Positions 11,301-63,456 of a DNA stretch of 64,000 nt are shown piece after piece. Made by a program: the position numbers and the translations under genes. Origin of the DNA: Thermoanaerobaculia bacterium (GTDB lineage: Bacteria; Acidobacteriota; Thermoanaerobaculia; Multivoradales; UBA5704); NCBI GenBank assembly GCA_039918595.1, contig JBDSHF010000538.1, positions 1,641 through 65,640 on the forward strand, written 5' to 3'. The notes beneath the pieces are model-generated. The model had not been told where the DNA came from. It did no database searches and worked only from the letters and a program-made list of their open reading frames with translations. Numbering within the stretch: the first letter of the stretch is position 1; each line of letters starts with the position of its first letter.

Positions 11301-14300
11301 ATAGGTCAGGGTCTCGTCCGGCCCCACCACCGCCACCGCGGCGGGAGTGCGCGACACCTGCGCCGCCACCAGATTCTGCAGACAGGCCGGCTCGGCAGCA
11401 GGCGCCACCGTGTCGTTCCACTCCCAGATCAGCGCCTGCCGTTCGGGTTCCCCCAGCAGCGGCAGCTCCGACAGACGCCCCCCCGGCGCCGCCACCACCG
11501 CCCGCAGCAGCGACGCAAAATGTACCGACAGCCGCTCCACCGTGACTGCGTCGAACAGCGCTGGGTCGTACTCGAACCCGCCCCCGAGCCCCCGCTCCCC
11601 CGCACCCAGGGAGAGCGACAGATCGAACTTCGCCGCGCTCCCCTCCCCATGCAGCGGGGCAATGGCGAGCTCCGGCAGTTGCACCGTGGGCAGCGTCACA
11701 TTTTGCAGGGCAAAAAGGACATCGAACAGCGGCGTGCGATCGAGATCGCGCTGTGGAGCGATCTCCTCGACCAGCTTCTCGAACGGCAGGTCCTGATGGG
11801 CGTAAGCCGACAGAGTCTCCTCCCGCGTTCGCTCCAGCAACTCGGAAAACACCGGATCGTCTCCCAATCGAGACGGCAGCACCAGGGTATTGACGAAAAA
11901 CCCGATCAAGGGCTCCGTCTCGATCCGGTTGCGGCCCGCGATCGGCGTGCCAACCCTCACCTCTCCTCCACCGCCGTACCGCGAAAGCAGGCTCTGCAGA
12001 GCCGCCAGCAGGAGCATGAACAGCGTCACGCCGTGGCCACGGGCCAGCCCCTGCAGCTCCTCCGCCCTTGCCGGCGAGAGGAGGACGGGGCGCTGCGCCC
12101 CCCGATGCCCCACTTGCGGCGTCCGCGCATGGTCCAGCGGCAGGCTCAGCCGGCTCTCTGTCCCGGAGAGGCGCGAGGTCCAGAAGCGCAGTTGCGCCTC
12201 CAGGACCTCCCCTTCCAGCCAGCTCCGCTGCCACTGCGCGAAGTCCCCGTACTGAATAGCGAGATCGGCCAGCGGCGATCGGTCCCCACGACGGAAGGCT
12301 CCGTACAGGGCCGACAGCTCGCGGATCAGAATGCCCACCGACCAGGCGTCGCTGACCACGTGGTGCATGGCCAGCAGAACGACGTGCTCCTCCTCGCTCC
12401 GGCGCAGCACCGTGCAGCGCACGAGCGGACCGTGCTCCAGGTCGAACGGCGCCCGGGCGTCCTCTCGCGCCAGCCGCCGCACGGCCGCCTGCCACGCCTC
12501 CTCCGGAAGGCCCGCGAGATCGACCACCGGCACCGCCACCGGCACCATCGGCATCACGATCTGCCGCGCCTCGCCGTCCACCGACGGAAACCGCGTGCGC
12601 AGCACCTCGTGACGGCGAACCACCTCCGAAAGCGCCTCAGCGAAGGTCGAGACCTCCAGCACACCAGAGACCGCGAACGGCTGCGGGCAGTTGTAGGCCG
12701 GGCTCGCCGGATCGAGCTGATACAAGAGCCACAGCCGCTGCTGGGCGAAGGAGAGCCGTAGCGGCCGGTCGCGGGGCACCGGCACCATGGGAGGTGGCGC
12801 GTTCCCATCTCCCTCGCCTCCCTGGATCGCCGCTTCGACGCGCAACGCCAGCGCGGCGACCGTGGGACTCTCAAAAAGCACCCGTAGGGGGACTTCCACC
12901 CGGAACTGGGCACGCACCCGCGACATCAGTTGGGTGGCGAGGAGAGAATGGCCGCCGAGATCGAAAAAGTTTCCGTCCCGCCCTATCTGCTCGAGCCCAA
13001 GAACCTCGCGCCAGACGCCGATCATCATCTCCTCGAAGGGAGTGCGCGGGGGCTCGACCTCGTCTACTCCACCGATCCGTTCCGCTTCTTCGGGGGGCGG
13101 CAGGGCCGCGCGATCCACCTTGCCACGGGAGGTGACAGGCAACTGATGCAGCAACACGAAGGCCGCCGGGATCATCGCCTCGGGCAGCCGGGACAGCAGA
13201 TAGTCGCGCAAGGAGCGGGGGTCCAGTTCCTCGCTCACCGCCGCGGAGACCTCCGCTTCACCCTCCTCGATCTCCCAGCCGTCGACGGCCGCGCCGCTTC
13301 GCATCGCGAAGAGGTTGTAACGGTCAGTGCCCGTCAGCAGCTCGTCCTGTTCTATTTCCACCATAAACCCTTGCTGGCCCAGCAGTCCGGTGATCTCCCG
13401 CAGCCGTCCCTCGGTGGGCTCGCCCACCGCGTCATGAACCTCCATGACCACCTGCCGGATCTTTGCCCAGTCCACTTCATCGATGCCGCGCAGAACATCC
13501 AGCTCCGCCCGCTGTACGTCGATCTTGAGCAGGTCGATGCGCTCGACCCCCTGCTCCTTGATAACGTCAGAGAGGCGACGAAGGTTCACGTCCTGGGTCT
13601 TGCTCAGGAAGCGGCCGGCAAGAAGGTCGTCGGCCTGCTCGAGGAGCGCCGCCGCCTCGGCGGAGCCCCGCTCGCGGTCGTTCTCCAGGTAGCGCCTGAT
13701 GACCTCCTGCTCGGAGGCGGCGTCGGCGAAGGCGCTCTGGCCCGACATCATCGAGTAGTTCGGGTAGTAGGTGAACGCCTCGGATCTCTCGCGATCGGAA
13801 AGGCCGAACGGCAGCAAGCTCACCCTGGGGCCGCCAGCGTTGTCCTTCAGATTGCCGAAGATGGACGGCAGCGGCTCGAAGGCGTAGATCCGCGCGCCAG
13901 GGCGATGGAGGCCCACAAAGAGAGTGAACATGCCGATGTTGGCGCCGACGTCGAAGACCACCGGCGCCTCGCCGAGGCGGATCCCCCGGCGGGTATAGCA
14001 GCGCTGCTCGAAGATCTCCCGGTAGAGGTATTCGGTCTCGTTGCGGTTCTGGTGCGCGACCAGCAGACCGTTGGGAAGACGGTGTCGCCGCTCCCCACCC
14101 CGCGCGCTGCCTTCACGGAACCGGGGCACCAGGTAGGCGACCAGACGCAGGTTGCCGGGCCGGTCCTCGCGGGCCACCACCACCGCCTCGCGGATGCCGG
14201 GATGAAGATCGAGGACGGCGGCGATCTCGCCAGGCTCGATGCGCTGGCCACGGATCTTGACCTGGTGATCGATGCGGCCGAGAAACTCGAGGCGCCCGTC

Positions 14301-16835
14301 CCAGCGCCAGCGCACCTGGTCGCCAGTGCGATAAAGCCGGCTGCCAGGCGTGCAGCCAAAGGAATCGGGCACGAACCTCTCCGCGGTTGGCACCGGGCCC
14401 GCCAGGTAGCCGCGGGCGACGCCGGCTCCGCCCACGTGCAGCTCTCCGGATGAGCCCGGAGGCACCGGCCGGGCCTGCTCGTCGAGCACGTAGGTGCGCA
14501 CATTGGACAGCGGCCCCCCGATCGACAGGGCGCCACCGATGCGCTGCACGGAGACATCCACCGTGCACTCGGTGGGGCCGTAGACGTTGAAGTAGACACG
14601 CCGCTCGTCCGCAGCGACCTCTGCCCAGAGCGCCGGATCGACCGCTTCGCCCCCCACCAGCACCAGAGACGGGAATTCCCGCTCCTGCAACCCGGCCGCG
14701 AGAAGGAGGCGGAGTTGCGACGGCGTACAGTCGAAGACATCGACGCGATGGCTCTCCAGATAGTCGAGAAGGGACTGCCCGTCGAGACGGATCTCCTCCG
14801 GGATCGGGCAGAGGGTCCGCCCGCGCAGGAGCTGGACGAGTTGCTTGATCGCGGCGTCAAAGGAGAGGGGCGCGTTGATGCCGACGCGCAGGCCGGGGCG
14901 GCCACGATAGATCGCCGCCTCCAGCGCCTCCAGCAGGTTGACCACCGAGCGATGCTCGACAGCCACCCCCTTGGGGCGGCCCGTGGAGCCGGAGGTGAAG
15001 ATGACGTAGGCGAGGTCGCCCGGCGAAGCCTCCTCCGACGGCGGGAAAACTGCCGCCGCCCCCTCTTGGAGGTGCACATCCGCTGGACAGATCACGGCAA
15101 GGCCCCGTGCCGCGAAAATTCCGCGCAAGCGTTCCTCGGTGACCGCGATCCCAGCTCCCGCCTCTTCAAGGAGGAGGGCCAGACGCTCCACCGGCTGGGC
15201 GGGGTCCACCGGGACGAAGGCGGCACCGCTCTCGAGGATACCGGCGACCCCTACGACCATCTCCAGCGATCGGTCCAGACAGAGCACGACCCTCTCACCG
15301 GGCGCGGCCCCGAGCGACCGGAGGTGCCGGGCGAGGCGGGAGGCGCGCTCTTCGACCTCGCGGAACGTCAGGCCCTCACCCTGGAAGGCGACCGCTTCGC
15401 CTTCCGGCGTCCGCGCCACCTGCGCACGGAAGCGCCCGGAGAGAGTGTCGCCTTCGCGGAGCCCGCTCCGCGTGTCGTTCCACTCCACCAGGAGTTGGTG
15501 CCGCTCCACCGCGCTCAGAACATCGAGGTCGATCAGCCGGGCCTCGGGCTCGGCGAGCGCGCCCGCCAGCAACGCGACGAAGCGGGCCGCCAGCAGATGG
15601 GCCTCAGCAGCCGGGAAGAGCGCGGCGTCATAGCGGAGCTCCAGCGACAGGTCCCCCCCGACCCGGGCGGCCGCGAGCTCCATCCTGAAGCGCTCCGTCA
15701 CCGTCCAGAGCCGGGCCAGGGAGAAGACGGTGCCTCCCGGGGCCGGCCACTCGGCGGGCCACTCGTTCCAGGAAAAAGCGAATGGAGCCAGGGACTCGGC
15801 GGCCACGCCCGCGCCCTCCGCCACCAGCTCCCACGAAAAGTACTCCTGCCACTCCTCGGCGCCGACCACCGCCTGCCAGGCCTCCTTGACGAGAGCGTCG
15901 AAGCCGAGGCGGGCCTCGCCGCGGATGAGGGCCAGGGGCCACCGCGCGTAGAGGCCCAAGGCCTCGTGCATCTCCTCGTAGGGGCGGCCGCCGCTGAGGA
16001 CCGCGAGGGCGATCTGCTGGCGCCCGGCGGCGCGGGCCAGAACGTGATACCAGGCCGCCAGCAGGCAGGACGAGACGTGGACGTCGAAACGGCGGGCGGC
16101 GGCCTCCAGGCGGCCGGTGAGCCCGGCGGGGAGGGCGACCAGCACCGCCGCCGGGAGGAACCTACCCCCCTCCGCGGCCTCGGAGGGGAGGCGCAGGTCG
16201 GCGAGCTCGGCGAGCTTGGGGTCGCGCCAGTGGCTCCTCCCCGCCTCGCCATCGCTGGCGGTCTGCAGATCGTTCTGCCACTCGGAGAACTGCGTGTACT
16301 GCACCGGCTCCTCCGCCGGTTCCTCCCCGGCGAGGCCAGACAGGACCTGGTGGATGAGGCTGCGCAGCGACCACTCGTCCGCGCTGAGAGAGGAGACGCT
16401 GACCGCGAGCACCCAGCCGAGCCCGGTGAGCGGCAGGAGAGAGAAGAGCGCCTGCGGTCCCGCCCCACCGACCCCCAGACGGGCGCGGTCCTCGCGCAAC
16501 AGCCATTCGATCGCCTCGGCCGGGTCCGCCGTGGCGGCCGCGGGGTGGTCGGGGCCGAGCGCCCGGAAGGCGTCCGGGACCTCTTCGGCCAGCACCTGAA
16601 TCGGCATCTCCATCCCGGGCAGGCAGGCATAGCGGGTGCGCAGGATCTCGTGACGCGCCACCACGCGCCGTACCGCGAGTCCGAGGGCATCGGAGGCGAG
16701 ATCACCCCGGGCGAGGAGAGCGCACTGGCAGGCCAGTGTCGGACCGCTACGCTGGAGCTGCCAGATCCGGCGCTGCTGGGGCGCCAGGGGAAACCCTTCG
16801 AGGACACCGGCGGAGGCGAGATCCGCGGCCGTCAT
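2388..16835 (-). CDS. NRPS-5: X-A(Glu-type, FkbM-MT insert)-T / C-A-T / C-A-T / C-A-T-TE (modules 11-14, terminating synthetase)
   Basis: 4815-aa ORF. ATG 16835 overlaps the NRPS-4 stop (ATGA 16832-16835). Motifs read from the translation follow. X domain: LAPQQRRIW, ARHEILRTRY, and SVSSLSADEWS at the C3 position (no His). A domain: LAYVIFTSGSTGRPKG, SFDAAIKQ, FNVYGPTECTVD, RLYRTGD, GRIDHQVKIRGQRIEPGEI. The A domain is split by an FkbM-type MT (VVFDVGANIGMFTLF, DVGANIG = nt 13932-13952; IDLLKIDVQRAELDVLRG) before LPEAMIP..SRGKVDR. Then T (GGHSL); C (HHVVSDAWS)-A-T; C (HHVASDAWS)-A-T, a near-duplicate of the previous module; C (HHVVGDGWS)-A-T; and TE (GGWSMG = nt 2985-3002; PGDHYH). Hand codes: module 11 DAKDLGVVDK (Glu), modules 12 and 13 DMFNNGLTFK (closest remembered is Ala-type DLFNNALTYK), module 14 DAESIGSVDK (Lys/Orn-like). 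Approximate nt map: X 15516-16835; A+MT 13101-15443; T 12840-13043; C 11451-12764; A 9924-11372; T 9660-9863; C 8271-9584; A 6735-8183; T 6471-6677; C 5082-6398; A 3534-5006; T 3273-3476; TE 2469-3236. Confidence 0.97.
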   Translation of the reverse strand: MTAADLASAGVLEGFPLAPQQRRIWQLQRSGPTLACQCALLARGDLASDALGLAVRRVVARHEILRTRYACLPGMEMPIQVLAEEVPDAFRALGPDHPAAATADPAEAIEWLLREDRARLGVGGAGPQALFSLLPLTGLGWVLAVSVSSLSADEWSLRSLIHQVLSGLAGEEPAEEPVQYTQFSEWQNDLQTASDGEAGRSHWRDPKLAELADLRLPSEAAEGGRFLPAAVLVALPAGLTGRLEAAARRFDVHVSSCLLAAWYHVLARAAGRQQIALAVLSGGRPYEEMHEALGLYARWPLALIRGEARLGFDALVKEAWQAVVGAEEWQEYFSWELVAEGAGVAAESLAPFAFSWNEWPAEWPAPGGTVFSLARLWTVTERFRMELAAARVGGDLSLELRYDAALFPAAEAHLLAARFVALLAGALAEPEARLIDLDVLSAVERHQLLVEWNDTRSGLREGDTLSGRFRAQVARTPEGEAVAFQGEGLTFREVEERASRLARHLRSLGAAPGERVVLCLDRSLEMVVGVAGILESGAAFVPVDPAQPVERLALLLEEAGAGIAVTEERLRGIFAARGLAVICPADVHLQEGAAAVFPPSEEASPGDLAYVIFTSGSTGRPKGVAVEHRSVVNLLEALEAAIYRGRPGLRVGINAPLSFDAAIKQLVQLLRGRTLCPIPEEIRLDGQSLLDYLESHRVDVFDCTPSQLRLLLAAGLQEREFPSLVLVGGEAVDPALWAEVAADERRVYFNVYGPTECTVDVSVQRIGGALSIGGPLSNVRTYVLDEQARPVPPGSSGELHVGGAGVARGYLAGPVPTAERFVPDSFGCTPGSRLYRTGDQVRWRWDGRLEFLGRIDHQVKIRGQRIEPGEIAAVLDLHPGIREAVVVAREDRPGNLRLVAYLVPRFREGSARGGERRHRLPNGLLVAHQNRNETEYLYREIFEQRCYTRRGIRLGEAPVVFDVGANIGMFTLFVGLHRPGARIYAFEPLPSIFGNLKDNAGGPRVSLLPFGLSDRERSEAFTYYPNYSMMSGQSAFADAASEQEVIRRYLENDRERGSAEAAALLEQADDLLAGRFLSKTQDVNLRRLSDVIKEQGVERIDLLKIDVQRAELDVLRGIDEVDWAKIRQVVMEVHDAVGEPTEGRLREITGLLGQQGFMVEIEQDELLTGTDRYNLFAMRSGAAVDGWEIEEGEAEVSAAVSEELDPRSLRDYLLSRLPEAMIPAAFVLLHQLPVTSRGKVDRAALPPPEEAERIGGVDEVEPPRTPFEEMMIGVWREVLGLEQIGRDGNFFDLGGHSLLATQLMSRVRAQFRVEVPLRVLFESPTVAALALRVEAAIQGGEGDGNAPPPMVPVPRDRPLRLSFAQQRLWLLYQLDPASPAYNCPQPFAVSGVLEVSTFAEALSEVVRRHEVLRTRFPSVDGEARQIVMPMVPVAVPVVDLAGLPEEAWQAAVRRLAREDARAPFDLEHGPLVRCTVLRRSEEEHVVLLAMHHVVSDAWSVGILIRELSALYGAFRRGDRSPLADLAIQYGDFAQWQRSWLEGEVLEAQLRFWTSRLSGTESRLSLPLDHARTPQVGHRGAQRPVLLSPARAEELQGLARGHGVTLFMLLLAALQSLLSRYGGGGEVRVGTPIAGRNRIETEPLIGFFVNTLVLPSRLGDDPVFSELLERTREETLSAYAHQDLPFEKLVEEIAPQRDLDRTPLFDVLFALQNVTLPTVQLPELAIAPLHGEGSAAKFDLSLSLGAGERGLGGGFEYDPALFDAVTVERLSVHFASLLRAVVAAPGGRLSELPLLGEPERQALIWEWNDTVAPAAEPACLQNLVAAQVSRTPAAVAVVGPDETLTYGELDRRAELLSRRLRALGIGPECCVGVLLERTAELVVALLAVLKSGGAYVPLDAAYPQSRLAFILRDSGAAALITRGDLLASLGTVPEGVHPVLLAAGWQSEPAMELPSDVAAPAGPGNLAYLIYTSGSTGVPKAVALEHRSAVAFVRWAWEVFSPEDLAGVLASTSIGFDMSVFELFVPLSRGGKVLVAANVLELPRLPAVGEVTLVNTVPSAMAELLAGGALPASVRTVNLGGEPLPRALADAVHAQGPLRLYNLYGPSEDTTFSTIAAIAGQGSGPSSIGRPVAGTQVYLLGADRRLVPLGAPGELYLGGEGLGRGYFGRPDRTAESFVPNPFAALAGGAGSRLYRTGDLARFRADGELEYLGRIDQQVKVRGFRIEPGEIESVLESHPGVRQAAVVAWTDGSGDRRLVAYVVPSGEEVPAQELREYLRGRLPEPMVPAFLVALASLPRTASGKIDRGSLPSPDLASGSAERSTVAPRSLLELELVGIWEELLGVSGLGVTDDFFELGGHSLLATRLMSRVRERFGADLPLRVLFENPTVATLAERVDTTLQGGEAVSAPPLVPVPRDKPLRLSFAQQRLWFLHQLDPESPAYNLPQPFTISGVLEVPAFAAALAEVVRRHEVLRTRFLSVEGEARQVVAPASAVAVPVVDLGGVPEAAWQAAVRRLAREDARTPFDLEQGPLVRCTVLRRVGEEHVVLLAMHHVASDAWSVGLLIRELSTLYEAFRRGKESPLAELLLQYGDFAEWQRSWLQGEVLESHLRFWTSCLAGTENRRSLPLDRARSPQVGHRGAQRPFLLAGEQAEELQELARAHGVTLFMLLLAAVQSLLSRWGGGGEVRVGTPIAGRNRMETEPLIGFFVNTLVLPSRLGDDPGFSLLLERTREATLSAYAHQDLPFEKLVKELAPRRDLDRTPLFDVLFALQTVTLPALQLPELAIAPLSGEGGAAKFDLSLSLSVGARGLGGGFEYDPALFDGVTVERLSAHLGSLLSAVVAQPDRPLSELPLLGEPERQALVWEWNDTAAVAAVASAPACLQDLVSAQVARTPGAVAVVGRDETLTYAELDRRAELLSRRLRALGIGPERCVGVLLERTAELVVALLAVLKSGGAYVPLDAAYPQARLAFLLRDSGASALVTRSGLLASLGTVPEGVQPVLLAAGWESEPAAEVPSDATALAVPGNLAYLIYTSGSTGVPKAVALEHRSAVAFVRWAWEVFSPEELAGVLGSTSIGFDMSVFELFVPLSRGGRVLMAANVLELPRLPAAGEVTLVNTVPSAMAELLAGGGLPASVRTVNLGGEPLPRALAEAVHAQGRLRLYNLYGPSEDTTFSTIAAIGSGESGPSSIGRPVAGTQVYLLDGDRLVSPGVPGELYLGGAGLGRGYFGRPDRTAESFVPNPLAALAGGPGSRLYRTGDLARFRADGELEYLGRIDQQVKVRGFRIEPGEIESVLESHPGVRQAAVVAWTDGSGDRRLVAYMVPSGEEVPAQELREYLRDRLPEPMVPAFLVELASLPRTASGKIDRGSLPSPDLASGSAERATVAPRSLLELELVDLFEMLLGVRPVGVTDDFFELGGHSLLATRLMSRVRERFGADLPLRALFESPTVATLAERVDAAVRGGEGGSAPPLVPLPRDRPLRLSFAQQRLWFLHQLDPESPAYNLPQTLAVSGALDVAAFAGALSEVVRRHEVLRTVFPSVDGEPRQVVLPAEPVPVPVVDLSGLAEEPRQATVRRLAREEGRSPFDLAQGPLLRCTVLLRNGVEYVVLLTMHHVVGDGWSIGVLIRELSALYEAFRRGEESPLPELAVQYGDFAEWQRSWLQGEVLEAQLRFWTSRLSGTESRASLPLDRPRTPQVGRRGAQQPFLLAGGTSRALEEVARAHGVTPFMLLLASVQTLLWRYGGGEEAVVVGTPIAGRNRLETEPLIGFFVNTLALPSRLGDDPGFSELLKRTREESLSAFAHQDVPFEKLVEEIAPHRNVDRTPFFDVLFALQNVEVPEVRLPELRIAGLEGQAAAAKFDLSLTLSAGARGIGGGFEYDPSLFDAVTVERLSGHLTALLEAVAAQPVRRLSELPLLALPERHALLLEWNDTAAGREDRPVHECFAERAAADPEQPAVISGAQSLSYGELDRRSNQLARYLRRLGVGPEVLVGIALPRSLDLLVALLGVLKSGGAYLPLDPADPGERLGALLRDSGALLLLSRRDLAAKVPDGPRLVCLEEEEALIQGESEETVRVPVALESLAYVLYTSGSTGAPKGVMVSHGALTAYIRGAGLCYGVVPDDRVLQFASITFDASVEDIYPCLTHGGTLVLRSPSMLDSPSGFLAECGRLGLTVVSMATSYWHELAAAMDTEELEVPPSVRLVIIGGEEARADRSRAWRRRTRVPVINSYGPTEVTVDGTRSDLAAWSEEHHRVPIGRAREEARVYLLDAVLRPVPLGTPGEICIGGSGVARGYLGRPERTAELFVPDPFRVRAGDRLYRTGDLGRFRGNGELEYLGRIDQQVKVRGFRIEPGEIESVLMSHPGVRQSAVVAGEDAQGYGRLVAYVVPSGEPVPVRELREYLRERLPDYMVPSVFVALSSLPRTAGGKIARRSLPAPELVSGSAEGASVPPRDLLELELVGIWEELLGVSGLGVTDDFFELGGHSLLATRVVARIQRQTGRRLSLALLMREPTIERLAAALRRGEPSTRSCLVEIQTAGSKAPLFWVHPVGGNVLCYMELSRRLGLDQPFYAFRARGLEEGEVCLAEVASMAVEYCAELLRFQPEGPYHLGGWSMGGLVAYEMAQRLAGEGREVRSLTLLDTHLPGAVGAPLTDLEILAAFALELGLRREILVQLADKLQRETTGRDLVDEVLVAARSAAVIPPDLDLEDLHRLFAVFRTNARGMEEYRAQPYSGRLTVVAAEEGSAGDGPELGWAPLASGGLDLWKTPGDHYHVLREPQVRSFAERLASSLSRTGSPGQFTSVSFLKKKKESS
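2397..2402 (-). promoter_or_regulatory. Shine-Dalgarno (AAGGAG) for the permease, embedded in the last codons of NRPS-5
   Basis: The minus strand reads ...AAA AAG AAA AAG GAG AGT TCT TGATG. AAGGAG lies 8 nt upstream of the permease ATG and also encodes part of the NRPS-5 C-terminal KKKKESS tail. Confidence 0.6.
2469..3236 (-). other. Type I thioesterase (TE) release domain of NRPS-5
   Basis: PLFWVHPVGGNV, GGWSMGG (nt 2985-3002) and PGDHYH are present. It is the last domain before the stop at 2388-2390. Confidence 0.9.
6399..9584. repeat. Tandem module repeat, copy 2 (C-A-T of module 13)
   Basis: See copy 1. The repeat period is about 3.18 kb (offset 3183-3186 nt, depending on a 1-codon indel). 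Confidence 0.9.
9585..12764. repeat. Tandem module repeat, copy 1 (C-A-T of module 12)
   Basis: The 1060-aa module is near-identical to the following 1062-aa module. There is a 122-nt exact DNA match, 10129-10250 = 6943-7064. Confidence 0.9.
13281..14093 (-). other. FkbM-type methyltransferase domain inserted in the A domain (A8/A9), NRPS-5 copy (subtype a)
   Basis: NRNETEYLYREIFEQRCY, VVFDVGANIGMFTLFVGLHRPGARIYAFEP, IDLLKIDVQRAELDVLRG. Confidence 0.8.
15516..16835 (-). other. X domain (condensation-superfamily fold, catalytic His absent), NRPS-5 copy
   Basis: LAPQQRRIW, ARHEILRTRY and VQYTQFSEWQ are retained. The C3 position reads SVSSLSADEWS. Confidence 0.8.
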
Positions 16836-19800
16836 CGCGGCGCTCCCGTTCCAGCCCCGGCGCGGGACCTCACCGCCAGGAACCGTTTCCGATTCGAGTC
16901 TTTGAGAGCTCGCCGATGCCGTTCGAGCTCGGCCTCTTCCTCGTCGGTGAGGACCCTGAGAGCGTCGAGCGGTTCGTCCGGCCGTGCCGAGGCCTCGCGC
17001 AGGAGGGTCTCGAGATGACCCTGCATGCGCGCGATGGTGGCGGCCTCGAACAGGTCCGCGTTGTAGGTCCAGCTCAACCCCAGCGACTCGCGACCCTCGT
17101 AGAGCCAGAGCGTGAGGTCGTAGCGAGAGCTCTCGAGCTGGGCGCCGACCGGTTGCAGTTTCAGACCAGGGAGGTCGAAGACCTCCCGCGGCGCGTTCTG
17201 CAGGCCGAAGGCGACCTGGAAGATGGGCGAGCGGCCGGCGCCGCGCTCCGGGGCCAAGTCCTCGACCAGCTTCTCGAACGGCAGATCCTGATGCGTATAG
17301 GCGTCCAGGGCAAAACGGCGCACGCGGCCCACCAGCTCGCGGAAGCTGGGGCGTCCCGACAGATCGGCCCCCATTACGAGCATGTTGAGGAAGCAGCCGA
17401 TCAGATCCTCAGTCTCGCGCCGGTTGCGGCCGGCAATGGGCACGCCAACCAGCACGCGATCCTGACCGCTGTAGCGAGCGAGGAGCGCCTGGAAGCCGGC
17501 GAGGAGCGTCATGAACAGGGTCGCCCCCTCGCCCCGGCTGAGCTCCTGGAGACGCGCCGAGACCTCCGGCGCGAGGCGGAAGCTCTCGCGGCCGCCCCGG
17601 AAAGTCGGCGCCGCCGGGCGCGGGCGGTCGGTGGGGAGGTCCAGCACCGGCGGCTCACTCCCGAGTTGCCGCCGCCAGAAGGCGAGCTCCCGCTCCAGAA
17701 CCTCGCCCGCCAGCCAGTGCCGCTGCCAGAACGAAATGTCGGCGTACTGCACGGGCAGCTCCGGAAGCGGCGAGGGGAGCCCCGCCAGGAAGGCGGCGTA
17801 GAGAGTCGCGACCTCGCGCACCAGCACGCCGAGAGACCAGGCGTCGCTCACGATGTGATGCATGGTAAGGAGGATCACATGCTCTTCCTCCCCGAGGCGC
17901 AGGAGATGGGCCCGCAGCAGCGGCCCACGGGCGAGGTCGAACGGCCGCCGCGCCTCCTCCGTCATCAGGCCGAGGCTGACGGTCTCCCGCGGCGAGTCCG
18001 CCAGCCCCGTCAGGTCGATCCGGGGCAGATGGAAGGGGGACACCGGGGCGATCCGCTGGCGGGGGCCGCCGTCCGCCGTCGGAAAGGTGGTCCGCAGAAC
18101 CTCGTGACGGCGCAGCACCTCCCCGAGCGTCCGTTCCAGAACGGCGGCATCGAGGCGGCCGGCGAGGCGGACAGCCTTCGGGCTGTTGTAGGCCGGGCTG
18201 TCCGGCTCTACCTGGTGGAGAAACCAGAACCGCTGCTGGGCGAAGGAGAGCGGCAGGTCGCCGTCGCGCGACACCGGCAGGATGGGCGGCGCCTCCAGCC
18301 CATGACCGGCGCGCACGACGCTCTCGATCCGGGCGGCGAGCCCCTCCACCGTCGGCTCCTCGAACAGCGCGCGCAGCGGCAGCTCGACCTGGAAGGCGGA
18401 GCGCGCCCGGGACATGACTTGCGTGGCGAGCAGGGAGTGGCCACCGAGCTCGAAGAAGCTCTCGTCGATCCCCACCCTGTCCACCCCCAGGACCTCGGAC
18501 CAGATCCCCACCAGCACCTCTTCGAAGGGCGTGCGAGGCGGCGCCGCCTCGCGGGCCGGAGCGACGTCCTCCGGCAGGGGGAGGGCGGCCAGGTCGACCT
18601 TGCCGTTGCGGGTGAGCGGGATCTCGTCGAGCCAGACGAAAGCGGTCGGTACCATGTTGTCCGGGAGCCGAGAGCGCAGGAACTGGCGCAGGTCGGCGCT
18701 GGCCAGAGGAACCGTTTCCGCCGGCGGCTGTGACCGCGGAGTGGCGATCCGGGGCTCGGCCACCGCCCCGGCCGGCAGGCGGAGAGAGACGGCATAGACG
18801 TTGTGGCGATCCGTGCCGCGGAGCAGCTCATCCTGCTCGGCCACCGCCCGAAATCCGCGCCGGTCGAGGAGCGCGAGCACCTCCGCCACCCGCCCCTCGC
18901 TCTCGGTGCCGGGGGCATCGTGGACCTCCATCGCGACCTGGTCGACCGCCGCCCAGTCCCCCTCGTCGAGCCCCTGCAGTACCTCGAGCTCGGCCCGCTG
19001 CACATCCACCTTGAGGAGGTCGACCCGCGCGATCTTCTCTTCCCGCAGCACGTCGGAGAGGCGGCGCAGGCGGGCCGTCACGTCGTCCCCCTGAAAACGT
19101 CCGGCGAGGAGATCGTTGGCCTCTTCGAGCAGAATCTCGGCATCCTGGCTCCCCTCCTCGCGGAGGTTTTCCAGGTAGCGTTTGACGACTTCGGTCTCGG
19201 ACTCGGGACGGGCGTGCCGGCTCTGGCCGGACATCATGGTGTAGCGGGGATAGAAGGTAAACGCCTCTTCCCGTTCGCCGTCGGAGAGGCCATACGGGAA
19301 GAGCCTGGTCCCCGGGGCGTACAGCTCGCAGTTGGCGCGGAGCGATTCGAAGATGGCCGGCACCGGCTCAAAAGCGAAGACGCGGGGGCGCGCGCACTCC
19401 TGGTGGACGAAGAGGGTGAACATGCCGATATTGGCCCCGACGTCGAGGATGCAGGCGTCGTCCGGCAGCCGCAATCCGTGCTGGAGATAGCAACGCTTGT
19501 CGAAGATCTCTTCGTAGAGGTAGTCGGTCTCGTTGCGGTTCTGATGCAGGATCGTCATGCCGTTGGGCAGCTCGTAGCGCGGTCGCCCGGCCGGAGCGGC
19601 GCCCTGCCGTCCGGGCAGGACGTAGGCGACCAGCCGCTGGTCTCCCGGATGGTCCTCGCGGAGGACGACCAGGGCGTCGCGCACCAGAGGGCTCTCCCGC
19701 AACGTAGCCTCGATCTCGCCGGGCTCGATGCGCACCCCGCGGACCTTGACCTGGCGGTCGAGACGGCCGAGGAACTCGAGGCGCCCCTCGGCGAGGAAGC

Positions 19801-22279: not shown

Positions 22280-22312
22280 GCGTGCTCCTAGCTCACTTGA
22301 GATCCGGCGTCG

Positions 22313-23362: not shown

Positions 23363-23385
23363 CGAATCTGTCCTCTCTTCTCTGG

Positions 23386-45233
<21,848 letters not shown>

Positions 45234-45234
<1 letters not shown>

Positions 45235-48200
45235 CAGCGGCCTCCCACACTTCTGCGCTCGACCCGCTTCAGCCGCGCGACATTGGCGTCCTCGCGCTGC
45301 CGGCGGCGCCGCTCCTCCTCCTCGCGGGCGGCCGCGGAGACCACCGTGAGGTCCTTGAGGGGCGTCTGCGGCGCCGCCACGGCGCTCTCGAGCAGGGAGG
45401 CGAAGCTCTCATGCAGGCCGGCGATCGTGGCGGCGTCGAACAGGTCGGTGCTGTAGGTCCAGTTCGAGGCCAGCCTCCCCCCCTCCTCCCACATCCAGAC
45501 GGTGAGCGGAAAACGGGCCACCTCGTATTCGACGGGGATCGTCGTCAGCTCCAGGCCCGGCAGCCTCAGGTCATACGGCGGCGCGTTCTGAAAACCGAAG
45601 GCCACCCGGAAGATCGGGGCCGGGCCCGAGCTGCGCTCGGGTTGCAGCTCCTCGACCAGCTTGTCGAACGGCAGGCCCTGGTGCGCGTAGGCGCCGAGCG
45701 CCGCCTCGCGGACGCGGGTGAGAAGATCGAGGAAGGTGGGGTTGCCGGACAGATCGGTGCGCAACGGCAGCATGTTGACGAAGAAGCCGATGAGCCCCTC
45801 GGTTTCGATCCGGTTGCGGCCGGCGATGGCGGTGCCCACGATCAGGTCCTCCTGCCCGCTGCAGCGGGCGAGGAGGGCCTTGAAACCGGCGAGCAGGGTG
45901 ATGAACAGGGTCGCTCCCCGGGCGTAGCTCAGCGCCGCGAGCGACTCCGCGAGCCCCTCCGGCAGCAGAAACGTGCCGCGGCGCCCGCGGTAGGTGAGCG
46001 CCGCGGCGTGCTGGCGCTCGAACGGCAGCTTCAGCTGGGGCAGCGGGCTGCCGAGACGCTGGCGCCAGTAGAGCAGGTGGGCCGCCAGAGCCTCGCCGCG
46101 CAGCCAGTCACGCTGCCAGCGGCTGAAGTCCGCGTACTGTACCGGCAGCTCGGGCAGCGGCGAGGGGAGCCGCTCGAGGAAGGCCGGATAGAGCATCCCG
46201 ACCTCGCGGACCAGGATGCCCATGGACCAGGCGTCACACACGATGTGGTGCATGCCGAAAAGAAGGGCATGCCGCTCCGGTCCCTGCCGCAGGAGGGTCA
46301 CTCGCAGCAGCGGCGCCACGGCCAGGTCGAAGGGACGCAACGTATCCCGCGCCGCGAGCCGCCCTACCTCCTCCTCCGCCGCGGCCGCGGGCAGGCCGGA
46401 GAGGTCGACCCGCGGCAGGGTGAGCTGGACCGCGGGCAGGATCTTCTGGATCGGCCGCCCGCCCACCACCGGAAAGGCGGTGCGCAACACCTCGTGCCGG
46501 CGCACCACCTCGGCGAGGGTACGCTCCAGCACGGCGAGATCCAGGGGCCCCTCCAGCCAGAGGGCGCGGTTGGTGGAGTAGAACGTCCCTCCCGGCTCGA
46601 GCTGATCGATGAACCAGAGGCGCTGCTGGGCGAAAGAGAGGGGGAGCTCGCCGTCCCGCGGAACCGGCGTCACCGGCGGCGACTGCAGCCCGTTCGCCGC
46701 CCGGACCGCCTCTTCCGCCCGCCACGCCAGGCCGGCCACGGTGGGCGATTCGAACAGCGCGCGCAACGGCATCTCGATCTGAAAGATCTCGCGCACACGG
46801 GACATCAGCTGAGTGGCGAGGAGGGAGTGGCCGCCCAGCTCGAAGAAGTTCGAGCTGGCCCCGACCCGGTCATGGCCCAGCACGCCGGCCCAGATCGACG
46901 CCATGATGCCTTCGAAGGGGGTCTGCGCCGCCACCAGGTCCGGGCCGCTCGCCTCCTCATCCGGTACCGGCAGGGCCGCCCGGTCCACCTTGCCGTTGCG
47001 AGTCAGCGGCAGCTCGTCCAGCACCACGTAGGCCGCGGGCACCATGACCTCGGGCAGGCGCGACTGCGCCAGCTCCCTGAGACCGCCGGCGGTGAGATCG
47101 GCGCCGTCCGGCTCCGCCACCGCTTCGTCGGCGCCGATCCCGGCACCCTCGAGCCCGGGGCGCACGGCATAGAGGTTGTGGCGGTCGGTGCCGGCGAGCA
47201 GCTCGTCCTGCTCGCTGGTCACCTGGAAGCCGTGGAGCTCCAGGAGGGAGGTGATCGCCGCCAGCCGCCCCTCGCTTTCGGCGCCCGGGGCGTCGTGGAC
47301 CTCCATGACCACCTGGAGCACCTTGGGCCAGTCCGCCGGGTCGATCCCGCGCAGGACGTCCATCTCCGCCCGCTGCACGTCCACCTTGAGCAGGTCGACG
47401 CGCTCGATCTCCTGCTCGTGCAGGACGTCGGACAGACGGCGCAGCAGGACCTCGTGGAGCTCGCCCTGGAATCTCCCCTCCAGGAGCTCGTCGGCATGAT
47501 CGAGGAGCGCCGCGGACGCATCCGCGGCTCCGGACCCGCGGGCGTTCTCGAGGAAGCGCTTGATCACCGTCACCTCTCCCGCAGCGTCGGCGCTGGAGCT
47601 GCGGCCGGACATCATGGTGTAGCGGGGGTAGAAGGTGAACTCGTCCCGCCGCTCCTGGTCCGCGAGGCCGAAGGGGAAGAGGTGGGCTCCCGGGGCGTAG
47701 AGGTCGGCGTTGGCCTGAAACGTCTGGCAGAGCGGCTGCAGGGGTTCGAAGGCGTAGATCCGCGCCGCCGGACGATGGCGGGCGACGAAGAGGGAGAACA
47801 TCCCGATGTTGGCCCCCACGTCGAGGACCACCGGCGCGTCCGGCAGCCGGACGCCGTGGCGCACGTAGCAGCGGTTCTCGAAGATCTCCCGGAAGAGATA
47901 CTCGGTCTCGTTGCGGTTCTGCCCGGCGACCGCCATGCCGTTGGGCAAGCGGTGGCGCTGGCGGCCGCCGGGGAGGGAGGGCTGGCGCCGTTTCGGCGTC
48001 ACGTAGGCGATCAGCCGGCGGTTGCCCGGCTGATCTTCCCGGACGTCCACCACGGCGGCGGCGACCGCCGGGTGCTCCCGCAGCACCGCCTCGATCTCAC
48101 CCAGCTCGACGCGATGGCCGCGCAGCTTGATCTGGTGGTCCAGCCGGCCCAGGAACTCGAGCGCGCCTTCCTGCAGGTGGCGGACCCGGTCGCCGGTGCG

Positions 48201-50684
48201 GTAGAGCCGCGTTCCCGGCTCCGCCGAGAAGGGGTCGGGGACGAACCGCCCGGCGGTAAGCTCGGGGCGGCGGGCGTAGCCGCGGGCCAGTCCGGCGCCG
48301 CCGATCCAGAGCTCGCCGGCGGCTCCCGCGGGCACCGGCCGGAGCCGCTCGTCCAGGACGTAGACCCGCACGTTCGCCAGAGGCCGGCCGATGGTGGGCG
48401 TGCCGGGAAGGATCTGGCAGGCCGTGGTGTCGACCGTGCACTCGGTCGGGCCATAGACGTTGTAAAAGCGCCGGTCCGGATCGCCGGCCAGCGTCCGCCA
48501 CAAGCCGGGATCGATCGCCTCCCCACCCACCAGGACGCGGCGCGGCGCGCCCGGACCCGCGAGACCGGCGGCCAGGAGGAGGCGGAGCTGAGTGGGCGTG
48601 CAGTCGAGGACGTCGATGCGCTGCGCGCGCAGAAAGGAGAGCAGGGCCTCGCCGTCGGCGCGGATCTCCTCCGGCATCAGGCAGAGCGCGTGTCCGCGGG
48701 CGAGCTGGCCGAGCTGTTTGATCGCGGCGTCGAACGACAGGGGGGCGTTGAGGCTCACCCGCAAGGGGCCGCTCTCCCCCGCGTAAACCGCCTGGTCCAG
48801 GGCGGCGAGAAGGTTGACCAGCGCACCGTGGCGGATCAACACCCCTTTGGGGCGGCCGCTGGAGCCGGAGGTGAAGATCGCATAGGCGAGATTCTCCGGA
48901 CCGGCCTCGATGCCGAACGGCTCGCCGCTCTCGCCGGCGATCTCATCCGCCAGGAGGTCGAGGGGGACCGGGGGGCAATCCTGCCCGAGGAAAAGCGGCA
49001 GGAGCCGCTGCTGGGTCAGCACGGCCCGGGCTTCCACCTCCGCGAGCATGAAACGGAGGCGCTCCGGAGGCTGGGTCGGATCGAGGGGCACGAAGGCCGC
49101 GCCGCGCTTGAGCACGGCCAGGACCGCCACGATCTGCTCCGGCGAGCGGTCGAGGCACAGGGCCACCCGCGAATCGAGCCCCACGCTCCAGCGCCGAAGG
49201 TAGCGGGCCAGCCGGCTCGCCCTCTGGTCGAGCTCGCGGTAGGTGATCTCCCGGCCGTCGGCCACCAGGGCCGTCGCCTCCGGAGCGCGCTGGGCCTGGA
49301 GCTCCACCAGGCGGTGCAAGGGGCCTTCCCAGGGCACTTCGCGGCGGGTCCGGTTCCACCCCGCGAGCACCTGCTCCCGTTCCCCGGCGCCCAGGATCTC
49401 GAGGTCCCCCAGGGGTCTTCCGGGCTCCCGCGAGCCCTCTCGCAGCAAGGTCTCGAAGCGGTCCAGGAGGAGCCCGGCGTCGTCCGGCGTGAAGCAGGCC
49501 GGCTCAAAATGAAGCTCCAGCGTCAGCTCGCCGCCCGTGGCGATCACCGCCAGCCGCGCCCGGTGGCGGTCGACCCTCGCCGATTGCCGCAGCCAGGAGA
49601 CGCGCAATCCGGCCGCTTCCGCCGCCGCCGGAACCTCCCGGAAATCGAAGAGGACGGGGAGGAAGCCGACACCATGATCCCCGGGCGCGAAGGACAGCTG
49701 GTGGTCCGCCGCCTCGCGGAATGCCGCGGCCACCGTGCGCACGGCGTCGTGGAAATCGAAGTGCTCCTCGAGCCCGCAGCTCACGGGAACGTAGCCCGCG
49801 AAGGGTCCGATCGCCCCGCGGAGCGGCTCCAGGGGGCGGCCGTCCACCAAGGCGCCGACGACGACGGTGGCAGCCTCGCCGAGACGGCGGAGGGTGGCGC
49901 ACCAGGCGGCGAGGAACACGATCGAGAGCGGGACACCCGGGGCCGTCAAGGCGGCGGCCGCGGCGGCCAGCGCGGGGCCGACAGGGCGCGACAGCACTCC
50001 GGGGTGGAAACGGGAGGCCTGCCGGCCGCCGTTCTGGTACCGGGCGAGGGGGTCGGCGAGTGCCCCGGGCGCGAGATGGCTCCAGTGGGCGCGCCCGGCC
50101 TCGGCCGTCTCCTCCTCCTCCAGGGAGGCCTGCCACTCGGAGAAATCGGCGTACTGTACCGGCGCCGGGTCGGTTTCAGCGCCGGCCACCCGGCAGGCAT
50201 AGGCGCGGACGATCTGGTCCACGGCGTTGTCGAGGCTCAGCGGATCGGCGACCAGGGCCGACAGCACCAGCAGGAGCACCCGGCGGCGTTCGTCCAGGTG
50301 GAGCAGGACATAGCGCGCCAGCGGCCCCCGCCGGAGGTCGAACGGCCTGCTCCTCTCCACCTCGAGCTGCCCGGCCACCAGCTCCTCGAGACTGATCCCA
50401 TCCGCCATTTCCGAGGCCCGGACCTGCCGCAGCTCCGGCTCGGAGGGCTCTCCGATCACCTGCAGCGGAGCCTCGACCCCGGGCAGGGTCTGGAACGTCG
50501 TCCGCAGGATCTCGTGGCGGTCCCCCAGGTCCCGCAGGGCCTGGCGAAAAACCTCTTCGCGCACCTCCCCCGTGAGGAGCAAGGCCCCCTCGACCCGGTA
50601 CTCCGCTCCCTCCTCAGAGAGGCGCCAGAGGTGCAACTGCCGGGCGGAAACCCGGAACCCTTCGATCGTCGCCGTCGTCGTCAT
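45234..50684 (-). CDS. NRPS-2: X-A(Glu-type, FkbM-MT insert)-T-C (module 3; AmbE-like minus T2-TE)
   Basis: 1816-aa ORF. ATG 50684 lies 15 nt after the TauD-1 stop, with GGGAG upstream. X domain: VSARQLHLW, DRHEILRTTF, and LVLSALVADPLS at the C3 position. A domain: LAYAIFTSGSSGRPKG, SFDAAIKQ, YNVYGPTECTVD, RLYRTGD, GRLDHQIKLRGHRVELGEIE; hand code DAKDLGVVDK. It is interrupted by an FkbM-type MT (VVLDVGANIGMFSLF, Asp codon 47820-47822; VDLLKVDVQRAEMDVLRG), followed by LPEVMVP..RNGKVDR. Then T (GGHSL), C (HHIVCDAWS) and a 36-aa charged tail. Approximate nt map: X 49395-50684; A+MT 46971-49322; T 46719-46928; C 45345-46652; tail 45237-45344. Confidence 0.97.
47151..47957 (-). other. FkbM-type methyltransferase domain inserted in the A domain (A8/A9), NRPS-2 copy (subtype a)
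   Basis: NRNETEYLFREIFENRCY, VVLDVGANIGMFSLFVARHRPAARIYAFEP, VDLLKVDVQRAEMDVLRG. Flanked by GRLDHQIKLRGHRVELGEIE (A8) and LPEVMVP (A9). Confidence 0.8.
49395..50684 (-). other. X domain (condensation-superfamily fold, catalytic His absent), NRPS-2 copy
   Basis: C1/C2/C4-like cores are retained. The C3 position reads LSALVADPLS instead of MHHxxxDGxS. Confidence 0.8.
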
Positions 50685-50699
50685 CGCCGCTCGGCTCCC

Positions 50700-51752
50700 C
50701 TACGTATGTCCAACCTGGTCCCAGCTCACCGGGTTGGCCATCGCCACCACCACCTTGCGCGCTCCCTCGAAGGGTTGGCGCCCATGGGCGACGGCGACGT
50801 TGTCGAGCAGGAGGACGTCCCCCGGCTGCCAGGCGAAAGCAACCGTCTCCTGGGTGTAGGCATCCCGGAGGTGTTCCATCACCTCCGGCTCGATCGTCTC
50901 ACCGTCCCCGTAGAAAGTGTTGTTGGGCAGGTCGTGCTCTCCGAACTCCGACAGCAGCGAATCGCGAACGCTCGGGACCAGGGTCGAGACGTGAAAGAAC
51001 GTCAGGTGATTGAACCAGCAGAGATCCCCGGTGCGGGGGTGCCGGGCCACCGCGCGCCGCACCTGCGAGGTGCGCAGGCGACGGCCGCCATCCTTCCATT
51101 CCAGGTCGATGCCGTTGTCCCGGCAGTACTGCTCCACGGCCGCCGCGTCCGCGGCCTGGAACGCCTCCTGCCAGGTCAGGCCGAAGCCGTCGCCAAAATT
51201 CCGGACGTACTGATAGCCCCGCTCGCCGAACCGCCGGCGGATCTCCGGATCGATGCGCTGAAAGATCTTCCGCGTATCAGCGATGGGGGTCTCGCCACCC
51301 TTCGCGGCCGCGACCACGCAATAGAAGCTGATCGCCCCCGGGAAACGCAGGTTGTAGGACTGCTCGTTGTGGAGAAAGATCGGGTACTGGGGCGGATAAT
51401 CCGTCGAGGTATAGATCCGTCCGCTCACCTGGCTGCGCGGCGAGGACCGCTCGGAATAGCGCAGGGGCTCCCCGGCGGCCGCCTCGACGAACTGCTCGAA
51501 ATCCGCCACCGATTTCGGGTGGAAGTTGCGGAAGAGCACCCCGCCGAAACGGTCCAGCCGCTCGCGCACCCAGTCGCGGTTGCTGGTCGCCCAGCCCACC
51601 AGGTTCATGCTCTCGGCCACCGCCTCGCAGACGAGGGGCAGGGTCCTGCCCTCCTCCAGGAAGGATTCCTTGACCAGGCTCTCCTGCGAGAGGCGCATGG
51701 CCTGTCGCGGCCGCGCGCGGAACTTGTTGAAGCTCGAATCTTCACTGCTCAT
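50700..51752 (-). CDS. TauD/TfdA-family (SyrP-like) Fe(II)/2-oxoglutarate-dependent oxygenase, paralogue 1
   Basis: 350-aa ORF. ATG 51752-51750 overlaps the NRPS-1 stop 51751-51749 (ATGA). Family features: RFGGVLFRNF, H-x-E (IFLHNEQSY), and a distal His-Arg (VAVAHGRQPFEG). It is collinear with the paralogue at 22313-23362, and roughly half of the aligned residues are identical by eye. Confidence 0.92.
   Translation of the reverse strand: MSSEDSSFNKFRARPRQAMRLSQESLVKESFLEEGRTLPLVCEAVAESMNLVGWATSNRDWVRERLDRFGGVLFRNFHPKSVADFEQFVEAAAGEPLRYSERSSPRSQVSGRIYTSTDYPPQYPIFLHNEQSYNLRFPGAISFYCVVAAAKGGETPIADTRKIFQRIDPEIRRRFGERGYQYVRNFGDGFGLTWQEAFQAADAAAVEQYCRDNGIDLEWKDGGRRLRTSQVRRAVARHPRTGDLCWFNHLTFFHVSTLVPSVRDSLLSEFGEHDLPNNTFYGDGETIEPEVMEHLRDAYTQETVAFAWQPGDVLLLDNVAVAHGRQPFEGARKVVVAMANPVSWDQVGHT

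Positions 51753-61687: not shown

Positions 61688-63456
<1,769 letters not shown>

Follow-up and report, generated by a model that had tools for sequence, protein, structure and literature searches.

In a 64,000-nucleotide stretch of DNA from a Thermoanaerobaculia bacterium (Acidobacteriota; GenBank assembly GCA_039918595.1, contig JBDSHF010000538.1), here called the window, a 14-module nonribosomal peptide synthetase (NRPS) for a lipopeptide carries four in-line copies of a tailoring unit that resembles the N-terminal half of AmbE, a synthetase of the pathway by which Pseudomonas makes the vinyl-ether antimetabolite methoxyvinylglycine (AMB). Each unit consists of a domain (X) that resembles a condensation (C) domain but has lost its catalytic histidines, an adenylation (A) domain with a Glu-type pocket, a methyltransferase (MT) embedded in that A domain, and a thiolation (T) domain. 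Two genes for TauD-family oxygenases, TauD-1 and TauD-2, lie among the NRPS genes, and the dehydrating C domain of AmbE, called CmodAA, is absent. By analogy with the AMB pathway we favour, on balance, a product in which an N-acylated 14-mer would contain 3-hydroxy-4-methoxy-glutamate (residue mass 175.05 Da) at positions 3, 4, 10 and 11. To our knowledge, published accounts of this AMB tailoring logic are confined to a stand-alone toxin pathway in Pseudomonas; here it would serve as a portable in-line module, used four times in one lipopeptide synthetase.

In the AMB route, Glu bound to the first T domain of AmbE (T1) is tailored before condensation: AmbC hydroxylates C3, AmbD hydroxylates C4 and the MT methylates the 4-OH (PMC8968710, PMC10880069). 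The route then needs a dehydration by AmbE-C2, the CmodAA domain, and a decarboxylative vinyl shift is triggered (PMC10880069). Our Amb references are the orthologues from Pseudomonas mangiferae (L002) and Pseudomonas sp. RIT-PI-AD (L001), not the PAO1 proteins. They were fetched by a genome scan with a 287-aa AmbE fragment rebuilt from a HMMER alignment to PDB 7R9X, which returned these two Pseudomonas amb clusters and three Micromonospora clusters, and not P. aeruginosa. Both Pseudomonas loci are syntenic (ambB-C-D-E), their AmbE fragment is 60% identical to the AmbE fragment of 7R9X, and their AmbE reads Q-A-MT-T1-C-T2-TE (Q, the N-terminal domain; TE, thioesterase), matching the published architecture (PMC10880069). 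An NCBIfam scan gave no Amb-specific models, only generic NRPS and weak TauD matches, and AmbE was not among the matches listed in homologue searches with the MT alone (listed proteins all <470 aa) or with full-length N2 (multi-module NRPSs). Domain order was taken from Pfam scans and from a phmmer map seeded with the window's own domains, and all trees are distance-based.

Four units with a Glu-type pocket and an embedded methyltransferase

Five co-directional NRPS genes (N1-N5), tightly packed or overlapping on the minus strand, encode the 14 modules from a FAAL start to a TE end, and the X-A[MT]-T units are modules 3, 4, 10 and 11 (coordinates in Table 1). Two of the unit-bearing proteins, N2 and N4, are compact single-module enzymes of ~1,815 aa with the order X-A-MT-T-C, which makes them well suited to in vitro reconstitution. 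Over ~1,320 residues the units are mutually 50-56% identical and are thus old paralogues; this divergence rules out both a recent duplication and an assembly artefact.

Extracted by alignment to a GrsA ruler, the Stachelhaus code reads DAKDLGVVDK in all four units. The pocket DAKDLGVV is that of surfactin module 1, which incorporates Glu (PMC10548584). In the AmbE orthologues the code is DSKDLGLVNK, with 7 of 10 positions in common with the units, including K239 and D278, and the identity of the AmbE A domain is 44-50% with those of the units versus 36-42% with the eight other A domains of the window that were tested. In silico, then, the unit A domains are predicted to be of the Glu type.

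The interruption of the A domain is of the AmbE kind as well. PF05050 (FkbM) scores 55-69 bits in the units and falls between PF00501 and the second half of PF13193, and the alignment places the insert after A8 (GRxDxQVKxRG) and before A9/A10 (LPxxMVP, NGKVDR). The S-adenosylmethionine (SAM) motif DVGANIG (DVGANIGMF) is intact in all four. Pfam splits the A domain of the AmbE orthologue alike, and the unit MTs are 45-55% identical to the AmbE MT and 58-76% to each other.

Much of this anatomy had been laid out in an earlier note on the same DNA, made from the letters and their open reading frames alone. It described a ~1,330-aa unit of a C-like domain, an A domain, an FkbM-type MT and a T domain opening the second to fifth NRPS, and every element that it listed is there; its span, 12840-51752, runs from N5 residue ~1332 through the start codon of TauD-1. 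Its hand-extracted code DAKDLGVVDK was reproduced by the GrsA ruler, its reading of that code as Glu agrees with the surfactin Glu-1 pocket, and its insertion point between A8 and A9 is borne out by alignment. It was also right that a protein with a C-terminal C domain precedes each unit, since an intact C domain faces the X domain at all four protein boundaries (N1/N2, N2/N3, N3/N4 and N4/N5), and that an oxygenase gene stands in front of each pair of units, TauD-1 before N2 and TauD-2 before N4. The Pfam order that it expected, PF00668 and then PF00501 split by PF05050, was found; its guess that PF00668 would be weak was not borne out, as the N3 X domain scores a clearly significant 157.6 bits across profile positions 7-455.

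The X domain and the Q domain of AmbE

The X domains are genuine C-type folds without the catalytic motif. Their PDB matches run along full-length C domains, for example Txo2 and TycC6, and both histidines of HHxxxDG are absent in all four, as the earlier note had said, the motif reading SALVADPLS, LPLWGDPRS, PVLLADSRS and SSLSADEWS. With the N-terminal Q domain of AmbE as phmmer query against the 19 C-type domains of the window, the X domains are the only matches (48-52 bits). Q and X also have in common an N-terminal LEGFxLSPxQ motif and (L/F)xADxxSL in place of HHxxxDG.

The name interface domain has been given to C-like domains that lack the histidines and precede the A domain of a residue that becomes hydroxylated (PMC13638107, PMC12230676). 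In its loss of histidines, its C-fold and its position, the X domain fits an interface-type (I) domain homologous to AmbE Q. This would link the unexplained Q domain of AmbE to interface-type domains. The role of such domains appears to depend on context: the interface domain is indispensable in glidomide and dispensable in myxoglucamide biosynthesis (PMC13638107).

Two oxygenases of different lineages

TauD-1 and TauD-2 match PF02668 with 168 and 166 bits, have intact HxE...H iron ligands and are 52% identical to each other. TauD-2 is 51-52% identical to the AmbD orthologues, level with its identity to TauD-1, and it has the motifs HHEMSYSHNWP and FNHAHMFHVSN in common with AmbD. In a neighbour-joining tree (300 bootstraps), TauD-2 and an orthologue from a Thermoanaerobaculia metagenome-assembled genome (MAG) fall into a clade with Pseudomonas AmbD and the second oxygenase of the Micromonospora amb-like clusters, with 89% bootstrap. 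HHEMSY is present in 118 of the 120 best TauD-2 homologues, which are 62-99% identical and come mostly from Acidobacteriota MAGs. With the AmbC orthologues TauD-1 shares 44-45% identity and the LHNEQSY motif, and it also contains FNHLTFFH. Judged from their sequences, the two are not simple duplicates. By analogy with the Amb enzymes, TauD-1 is the predicted C3 (beta) hydroxylase of T-bound Glu, AmbC-like, and TauD-2 the predicted C4 (gamma) hydroxylase, AmbD-type.

Ordinary condensation domains after the units

What happens to the tailored residue would depend on the next C domain, and here the window parts from AmbE. The CmodAA hallmarks, namely DAYPMSRLQLGM, HGRPEEPGAD and the acidic insert, are absent in the alignment from the C domains after all four units. 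Among PDB entries they come closest to Txo1/Txo2 and TycC6, and the 40 hits below 1e-20 do not include 7R9X (search with the N2 C-terminal C domain). AmbE-C2 matches the post-unit C domains with 67-85 bits, no better than other C domains of the window, and in the distance tree they cluster with the neighbouring elongation C domains. As far as signatures and relatives tell, then, no dehydrating CmodAA domain follows the T domain of any unit and the post-unit C domains are ordinary; the missing signatures and the PDB ranking rule them out as CmodAA candidates. Nor does a T2-TE follow to release a di- or tripeptide: the units lead into more elongation modules, and the sole TE domain of the line is at the end of N5.

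CmodAA-like domains (36-44% identical to AmbE-C2) are known from genomes of Thermoanaerobaculia, Holophagales and Pyrinomonadaceae, in part next to a TauD-1-like gene, so that the absence of CmodAA here is not due to a phylum that lacks the domain.

The four protein-terminal C domains, those upstream of the units, cluster together with 75% bootstrap, and a shared C-lobe motif, RFDLTVW...W(T/S)Y, sets them apart from the other C domains, which lack it. They may be specialised at the acceptor site for modified Glu, or dock to X. Acceptor-site gating has been shown for MxgA in myxoglucamide biosynthesis (PMC13638107), and the clustering and motif seen here are compatible with gating of that kind. 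The first of the four, at the end of N1, is predicted to act in trans, condensing the acyl-dipeptide onto unit 1. We also considered these domains as epimerization (E) domains; they carry C-type motifs and were ruled out, the only E domain being at N3 residues 5591-6040.

A further observation concerns the active-site motif. In six C domains it reads HHxxxDAWS, with Ala in place of Gly (residues N2 1479, N3 1486, N3 6941, N4 1474, N5 1491 and N5 2551). This variant covers all four post-unit C domains, but also the third C domain of N5 (C3), which is flanked by no unit.

A proposed route and its rivals

In the scheme that we favour, each unit A domain would load L-Glu onto its own T domain. The X domain would perform no chemistry and would help to position the free-standing oxygenases, the upstream C domain or both. 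TauD-1 would hydroxylate C3 and TauD-2 C4 of the tethered Glu, both in trans and on all four units, and the embedded FkbM MT would O-methylate the 4-OH. The intact C domain that ends the preceding protein would then transfer the growing chain onto the modified Glu, and the next C domain, as an ordinary elongation domain, would pass the residue on with hydroxyl, methoxy and gamma-carboxylate groups intact. Because the post-unit C domains are ordinary and lack the CmodAA signatures, the products would be 3-hydroxy-4-methoxy-Glu and not methoxyvinylglycine. Regiochemistry, timing and final residue are modelled here on the AMB pathway. In-trans action is favoured over a division of labour by a related locus, L062, where a single unit is accompanied by two TauD genes side by side, one per type, so that one unit appears to need both enzymes.

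Several observations weigh against this scheme. By pairwise identity the X domains are no nearer to AmbE Q (30-35%) than to ordinary C domains (28-34%), and only reciprocal phmmer ranking and shared motifs tell X and ordinary C apart. TauD-1 falls outside the AmbC clade of Pseudomonas and Micromonospora, among acidobacterial TauD proteins of the HNE[QN]SY type, which makes its regiochemistry less certain; the earlier note's matching of the oxygenases to AmbC and AmbD thus stands for TauD-2, whereas for TauD-1 the HNEQSY motif agrees and the tree does not. Stand-alone FkbM enzymes are 44-49% identical to the unit MT, equally similar as the AmbE MT, and the neighbour-joining tree of MTs is poorly resolved, with no exclusive clade of AmbE and the units; in a family with so many stand-alone members, homology does not fix the atom that is methylated. 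A dehydrating activity has also been reported for C domains that lie outside the CmodAA clade (PMC10880069), so that the ordinary-looking ones here might still act as dehydratases, and the presence of one TauD gene ahead of each pair of units could mean a division of labour.

The most far-reaching alternative is that the full AMB chemistry takes place in line, 2,3-dehydration and decarboxylation by the downstream C domain or by an enzyme encoded outside the window giving up to four methoxyvinylglycine residues. We regard it as quite unlikely. A Q-like domain, a Glu-type A domain, an MT and both AmbC-like and AmbD-type oxygenases are all in the window, the unusual HHxxxDAWS motif occurs in all four post-unit C domains, and, besides the dehydrating domains outside the CmodAA clade already mentioned, a non-CmodAA C domain has been proposed for decarboxylative dehydration in myxoglucamide biosynthesis (PMC13638107). 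The post-unit C domains, however, lack all three CmodAA hallmarks, group with elongation C domains, score lowest against AmbE-C2 and do not bring up 7R9X among their 40 PDB hits below 1e-20; the DAWS variant is also found in N5 C3, with no unit on either side; and true CmodAA domains are known in the same phylum and unused here. That the chemistry would be completed in line without any CmodAA, so that one lipopeptide held up to four enol-ether residues able to inactivate enzymes dependent on pyridoxal phosphate, seems to us very improbable. If true, this would be highly interesting, giving a multi-warhead antimetabolite peptide and revealing a new class of dehydrating and decarboxylating C domains of the HHxxxDAWS type. 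The earlier note's expectation of AmbE-like units is thus upheld in architecture, MT, A domain and the Q/X phmmer match, while the oxyvinylglycine-type residues that it considered are disfavoured by the missing CmodAA signatures.

Two further readings differ in the residue. If TauD-1 served units 1-2 and TauD-2 units 3-4, 3-methoxy-Glu would stand at positions 3 and 4 and 4-methoxy-Glu at 10 and 11. The position of each TauD gene directly upstream of one pair of units speaks for such a division, as do the related loci L061 and L064, each with one TauD gene between NRPS genes within the recovered stretch. We nevertheless think it unlikely, given that L062 pairs one unit with two adjacent TauD genes of different type, that both TauD types are separate conserved lineages found together in every amb-like cluster examined (Pseudomonas, Micromonospora), and that the 58-76% identity among the unit MTs suggests a single type of substrate. 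Alternatively, the MT could be inactive or could esterify the gamma-carboxylate, leaving (di)hydroxy-Glu or Glu methyl ester derivatives. The FkbM family is diverse and the MT tree is poorly resolved, and MT-bearing units with a Gln-type pocket exist, one of them (L063) without a TauD gene in the recovered stretch, so that the MT is not tied to hydroxylated Glu. Against this, the unit MTs resemble that of AmbE, for which 4-O-methylation is the published role, all four keep the SAM motif, and in several loci the MT is found together with AmbD-type oxygenases; we therefore hold this reading to be highly doubtful.

Relatives of the units

The cluster is not an isolated case. A 96-99% identical cluster lies on a JGI metagenome contig (JGI 3300055048), and a Thermoanaerobaculia MAG (L061) has a TauD gene followed by X-A-MT-T-C, X-A-MT-T-C and further modules, arranged as in the window. 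More in-line units occur in loci L062, L064 and L066, and uncultured Acidobacteriota are rich in close relatives of the unit and of the AmbD-type oxygenase. L063 (10001-17251) and L064 (301-8916) contain a variant X-A-MT-T unit whose pocket is of the Gln type (DAWQFGLID) and whose FkbM MT is more divergent; in L063 no TauD gene lies within 10 kb of it. We envision that the predicted building block, 3-hydroxy-4-methoxy-glutamate, would be an undescribed one and may be common in soil lipopeptides.

Other relatives of the parts occur in other settings. In L015, L024 and L059 (Thermoanaerobaculia, Acidobacteriota and Pyrinomonadaceae), a CmodAA-like C domain has a single TauD-1-like gene (50-56% identical) at a distance of a few kb and no MT; these loci probably make dehydro-amino acids by hydroxylation and dehydration, in the same phylum. 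The AmbE-type front end, which occurs both with and without CmodAA, offers a natural experiment on what CmodAA contributes. Stand-alone amb-like clusters with two TauD types, an MT-containing AmbE-like NRPS and CmodAA are present in Micromonospora spp. (L003, L007, L008), and on this sequence evidence AMB-type oxyvinylglycine pathways seem to exist in actinomycetes. The single-unit lipopeptide cluster of L062 has, at 18619-20991, a CmlA-type di-iron beta-hydroxylase (PF18456), together with an MbtH protein, neither of which is in the window.

In full-text literature searches we found no paper on AmbC/AmbD/AmbE-type units inside larger NRPSs and none on methoxy-glutamate residues in peptides. 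The earlier note's remark that no in-line, multi-copy use had been described is thus in keeping with that literature, although the X domain itself belongs to an already published concept, that of the interface domain. The closest published in-line case is the I-A(Glu)-T module of myxoglucamide, with a fused oxygenase and no MT, which carries out Glu beta-hydroxylation (PMC13638107).

Cluster layout and neighbouring genes

The G+C content is ~72%. Directly upstream of N1 lies a gene for a flavin-dependent tryptophan halogenase (PF04820, 541 bits), with a G+C content of 59.5% versus 73% for N1. Module 8 has the pocket DGWTVAAICK and is followed by the only E domain of the line; it may supply a D-(halo)Trp residue. 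Immediately downstream of N5, an ADOP-family duplicated MacB-like permease (TIGR03434, 866 bits), likely an exporter, runs off the window. It is also a taxonomic marker for Acidobacteriota, and with the top homologues it indicates that the DNA is acidobacterial, probably from Thermoanaerobaculia.

Module 9 retains only a remnant of an A domain, its C-terminal subdomain (N3 residues ~6490-6715), in which A8 survives as a decayed GPLGERLVIHGRPVWPGEVE and another residue stands in place of the Lys of A10 (GGRVDR). With only this remnant between its C and T domains, the T domain of module 9 must be loaded in trans or skipped. In N5, modules 12 and 13 (~6700-12800) are near-duplicates, both with the pocket DMFNNGLTFK; searched with the module 12 A-domain seed, the A domain of module 13 reaches 965.6 bits versus 1095.5 for the seed itself, which suggests, at the level of sequence, a recent internal module duplication.

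Table 1. Units, oxygenases, condensation domains and genes of the cluster (positions in the window; C, condensation; E, epimerization; *, degenerate)
Feature	Position	Strand	Composition or motif
Unit 1 (module 3), N2 residues 1-1330	46695-50684	minus	X-A[MT]-T; X 49365-50684, A N-part 47958-49361, FkbM MT 47154-47957, A C-part 46935-47153, T 46695-46922
Unit 2 (module 4), N3 residues 1-1335	41230-45234	minus	X-A[MT]-T; X 43906-45234, A N-part 42484-43902, FkbM MT 41683-42483, A C-part 41461-41682, T 41230-41457
Unit 3 (module 10), N4 residues 1-1325	18305-22279	minus	X-A[MT]-T; X 20990-22279, A N-part 19580-20971, FkbM MT 18779-19579, A C-part 18545-18778, T 18305-18538
Unit 4 (module 11), N5 residues 1-1340	12816-16835	minus	X-A[MT]-T; X 15495-16835, A N-part 14088-15494, FkbM MT 13293-14087, A C-part 13062-13292, T 12816-13052
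TauD-1	50700-51752	minus	start codon overlaps N1 stop codon
TauD-2	22313-23362	minus	gene between N3 and N4
N1 C-terminal C	51872-53197	minus	HHIVGDGWS; upstream of unit 1
N2 C-terminal C	45315-46682	minus	HHIVCDAWS; downstream of unit 1, upstream of unit 2; ordinary type
N3 C2, after unit 2	39865-41211	minus	HHIASDAWS; ordinary type
N3 C-terminal C	23515-24849	minus	HHIVSDAWS; upstream of unit 3
N4 C-terminal C	16940-18292	minus	HHIVSDAWS; downstream of unit 3, upstream of unit 4
N5 C2, after unit 4	11466-12800	minus	HHVVSDAWS; ordinary type
N1	51749-61651	minus	FAAL-T-Cstarter-A-T-C-A-T-C
N2	45234-50684	minus	X-A[MT]-T-C
N3	23386-45234	minus	X-A[MT]-T-C-A-T-C-A-T-C-A-T-C-A-T-E-C-A*-T-C
N4	16832-22279	minus	X-A[MT]-T-C
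N5	2388-16835	minus	X-A[MT]-T-C-A-T-C-A-T-C-A-T-TE
Module 9 A remnant	25129-25593	minus	between C and T of N3
Tryptophan halogenase	61688-63367	minus	
ADOP-family permease	1-2385	minus	

Comparison with known systems

A domains interrupted by an MT between a8 and a9 are bifunctional adenylating and methylating enzymes, among them the O-methylating KtzH A4 of the kutznerides and TioS/TioN. The insertion site is alike in the window; the MT is of the FkbM/PF05050 family there, and its predicted target is a hydroxyl installed on the line, versus a native Ser/Thr OH or a backbone N. The kutzneride system also hydroxylates T-bound Glu at the beta position, with KtzO and KtzP, two oxygenases that differ in stereochemistry and not in regiochemistry, and its truncated A* domain is loaded in trans. 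TauD-type oxygenases that act on carrier-bound Glu, as predicted for the window, are thus a common trait, while the kutzneride system is without MT and without an I-type domain. The degenerate A domain of module 9 recalls both the A* domain of KtzH and the A-less T2 of AmbE.

Reitz et al. in 2019 reportedly associated interface domains with siderophore Asp/His beta-hydroxylases. Like these siderophore systems and like glidomide (GlmF) and myxoglucamide (MxgA/MxgB), in which interface domains are combined with 2-oxoglutarate-dependent hydroxylases, the window has a His-less C-fold directly before the A domain, an intact C domain ahead of it, and genes for cognate TauD/TfdA-type hydroxylases in the cluster (two PF02668 proteins). 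The likeness to myxoglucamide extends to the T-bound L-Glu substrate and to the split of C / I-A-T over two proteins (PMC13638107). Unlike myxoglucamide, where MxgA has a fused oxygenase, the window has two free-standing oxygenase types, an embedded O-methyltransferase and multiple copies of the unit.

The AMB system is nearest in its parts. In both, the upstream protein ends in a C domain acting in trans and the next protein opens with a C-like domain that lacks the histidines; then come a Glu-type A domain, split between A8 and A9 by an FkbM MT, and a T domain; and two TauD-family oxygenases of different lineages, one of them clearly AmbD-type, accompany the line. They differ in what these parts are built into. 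In place of a stand-alone dipeptide pathway in Pseudomonas, an acidobacterial host has four copies of the unit within a 14-module lipopeptide line; in place of CmodAA and a T2-TE after the unit, ordinary C domains extend the chain; and in place of a vinyl ether, the predicted end point is 3-hydroxy-4-methoxy-Glu.

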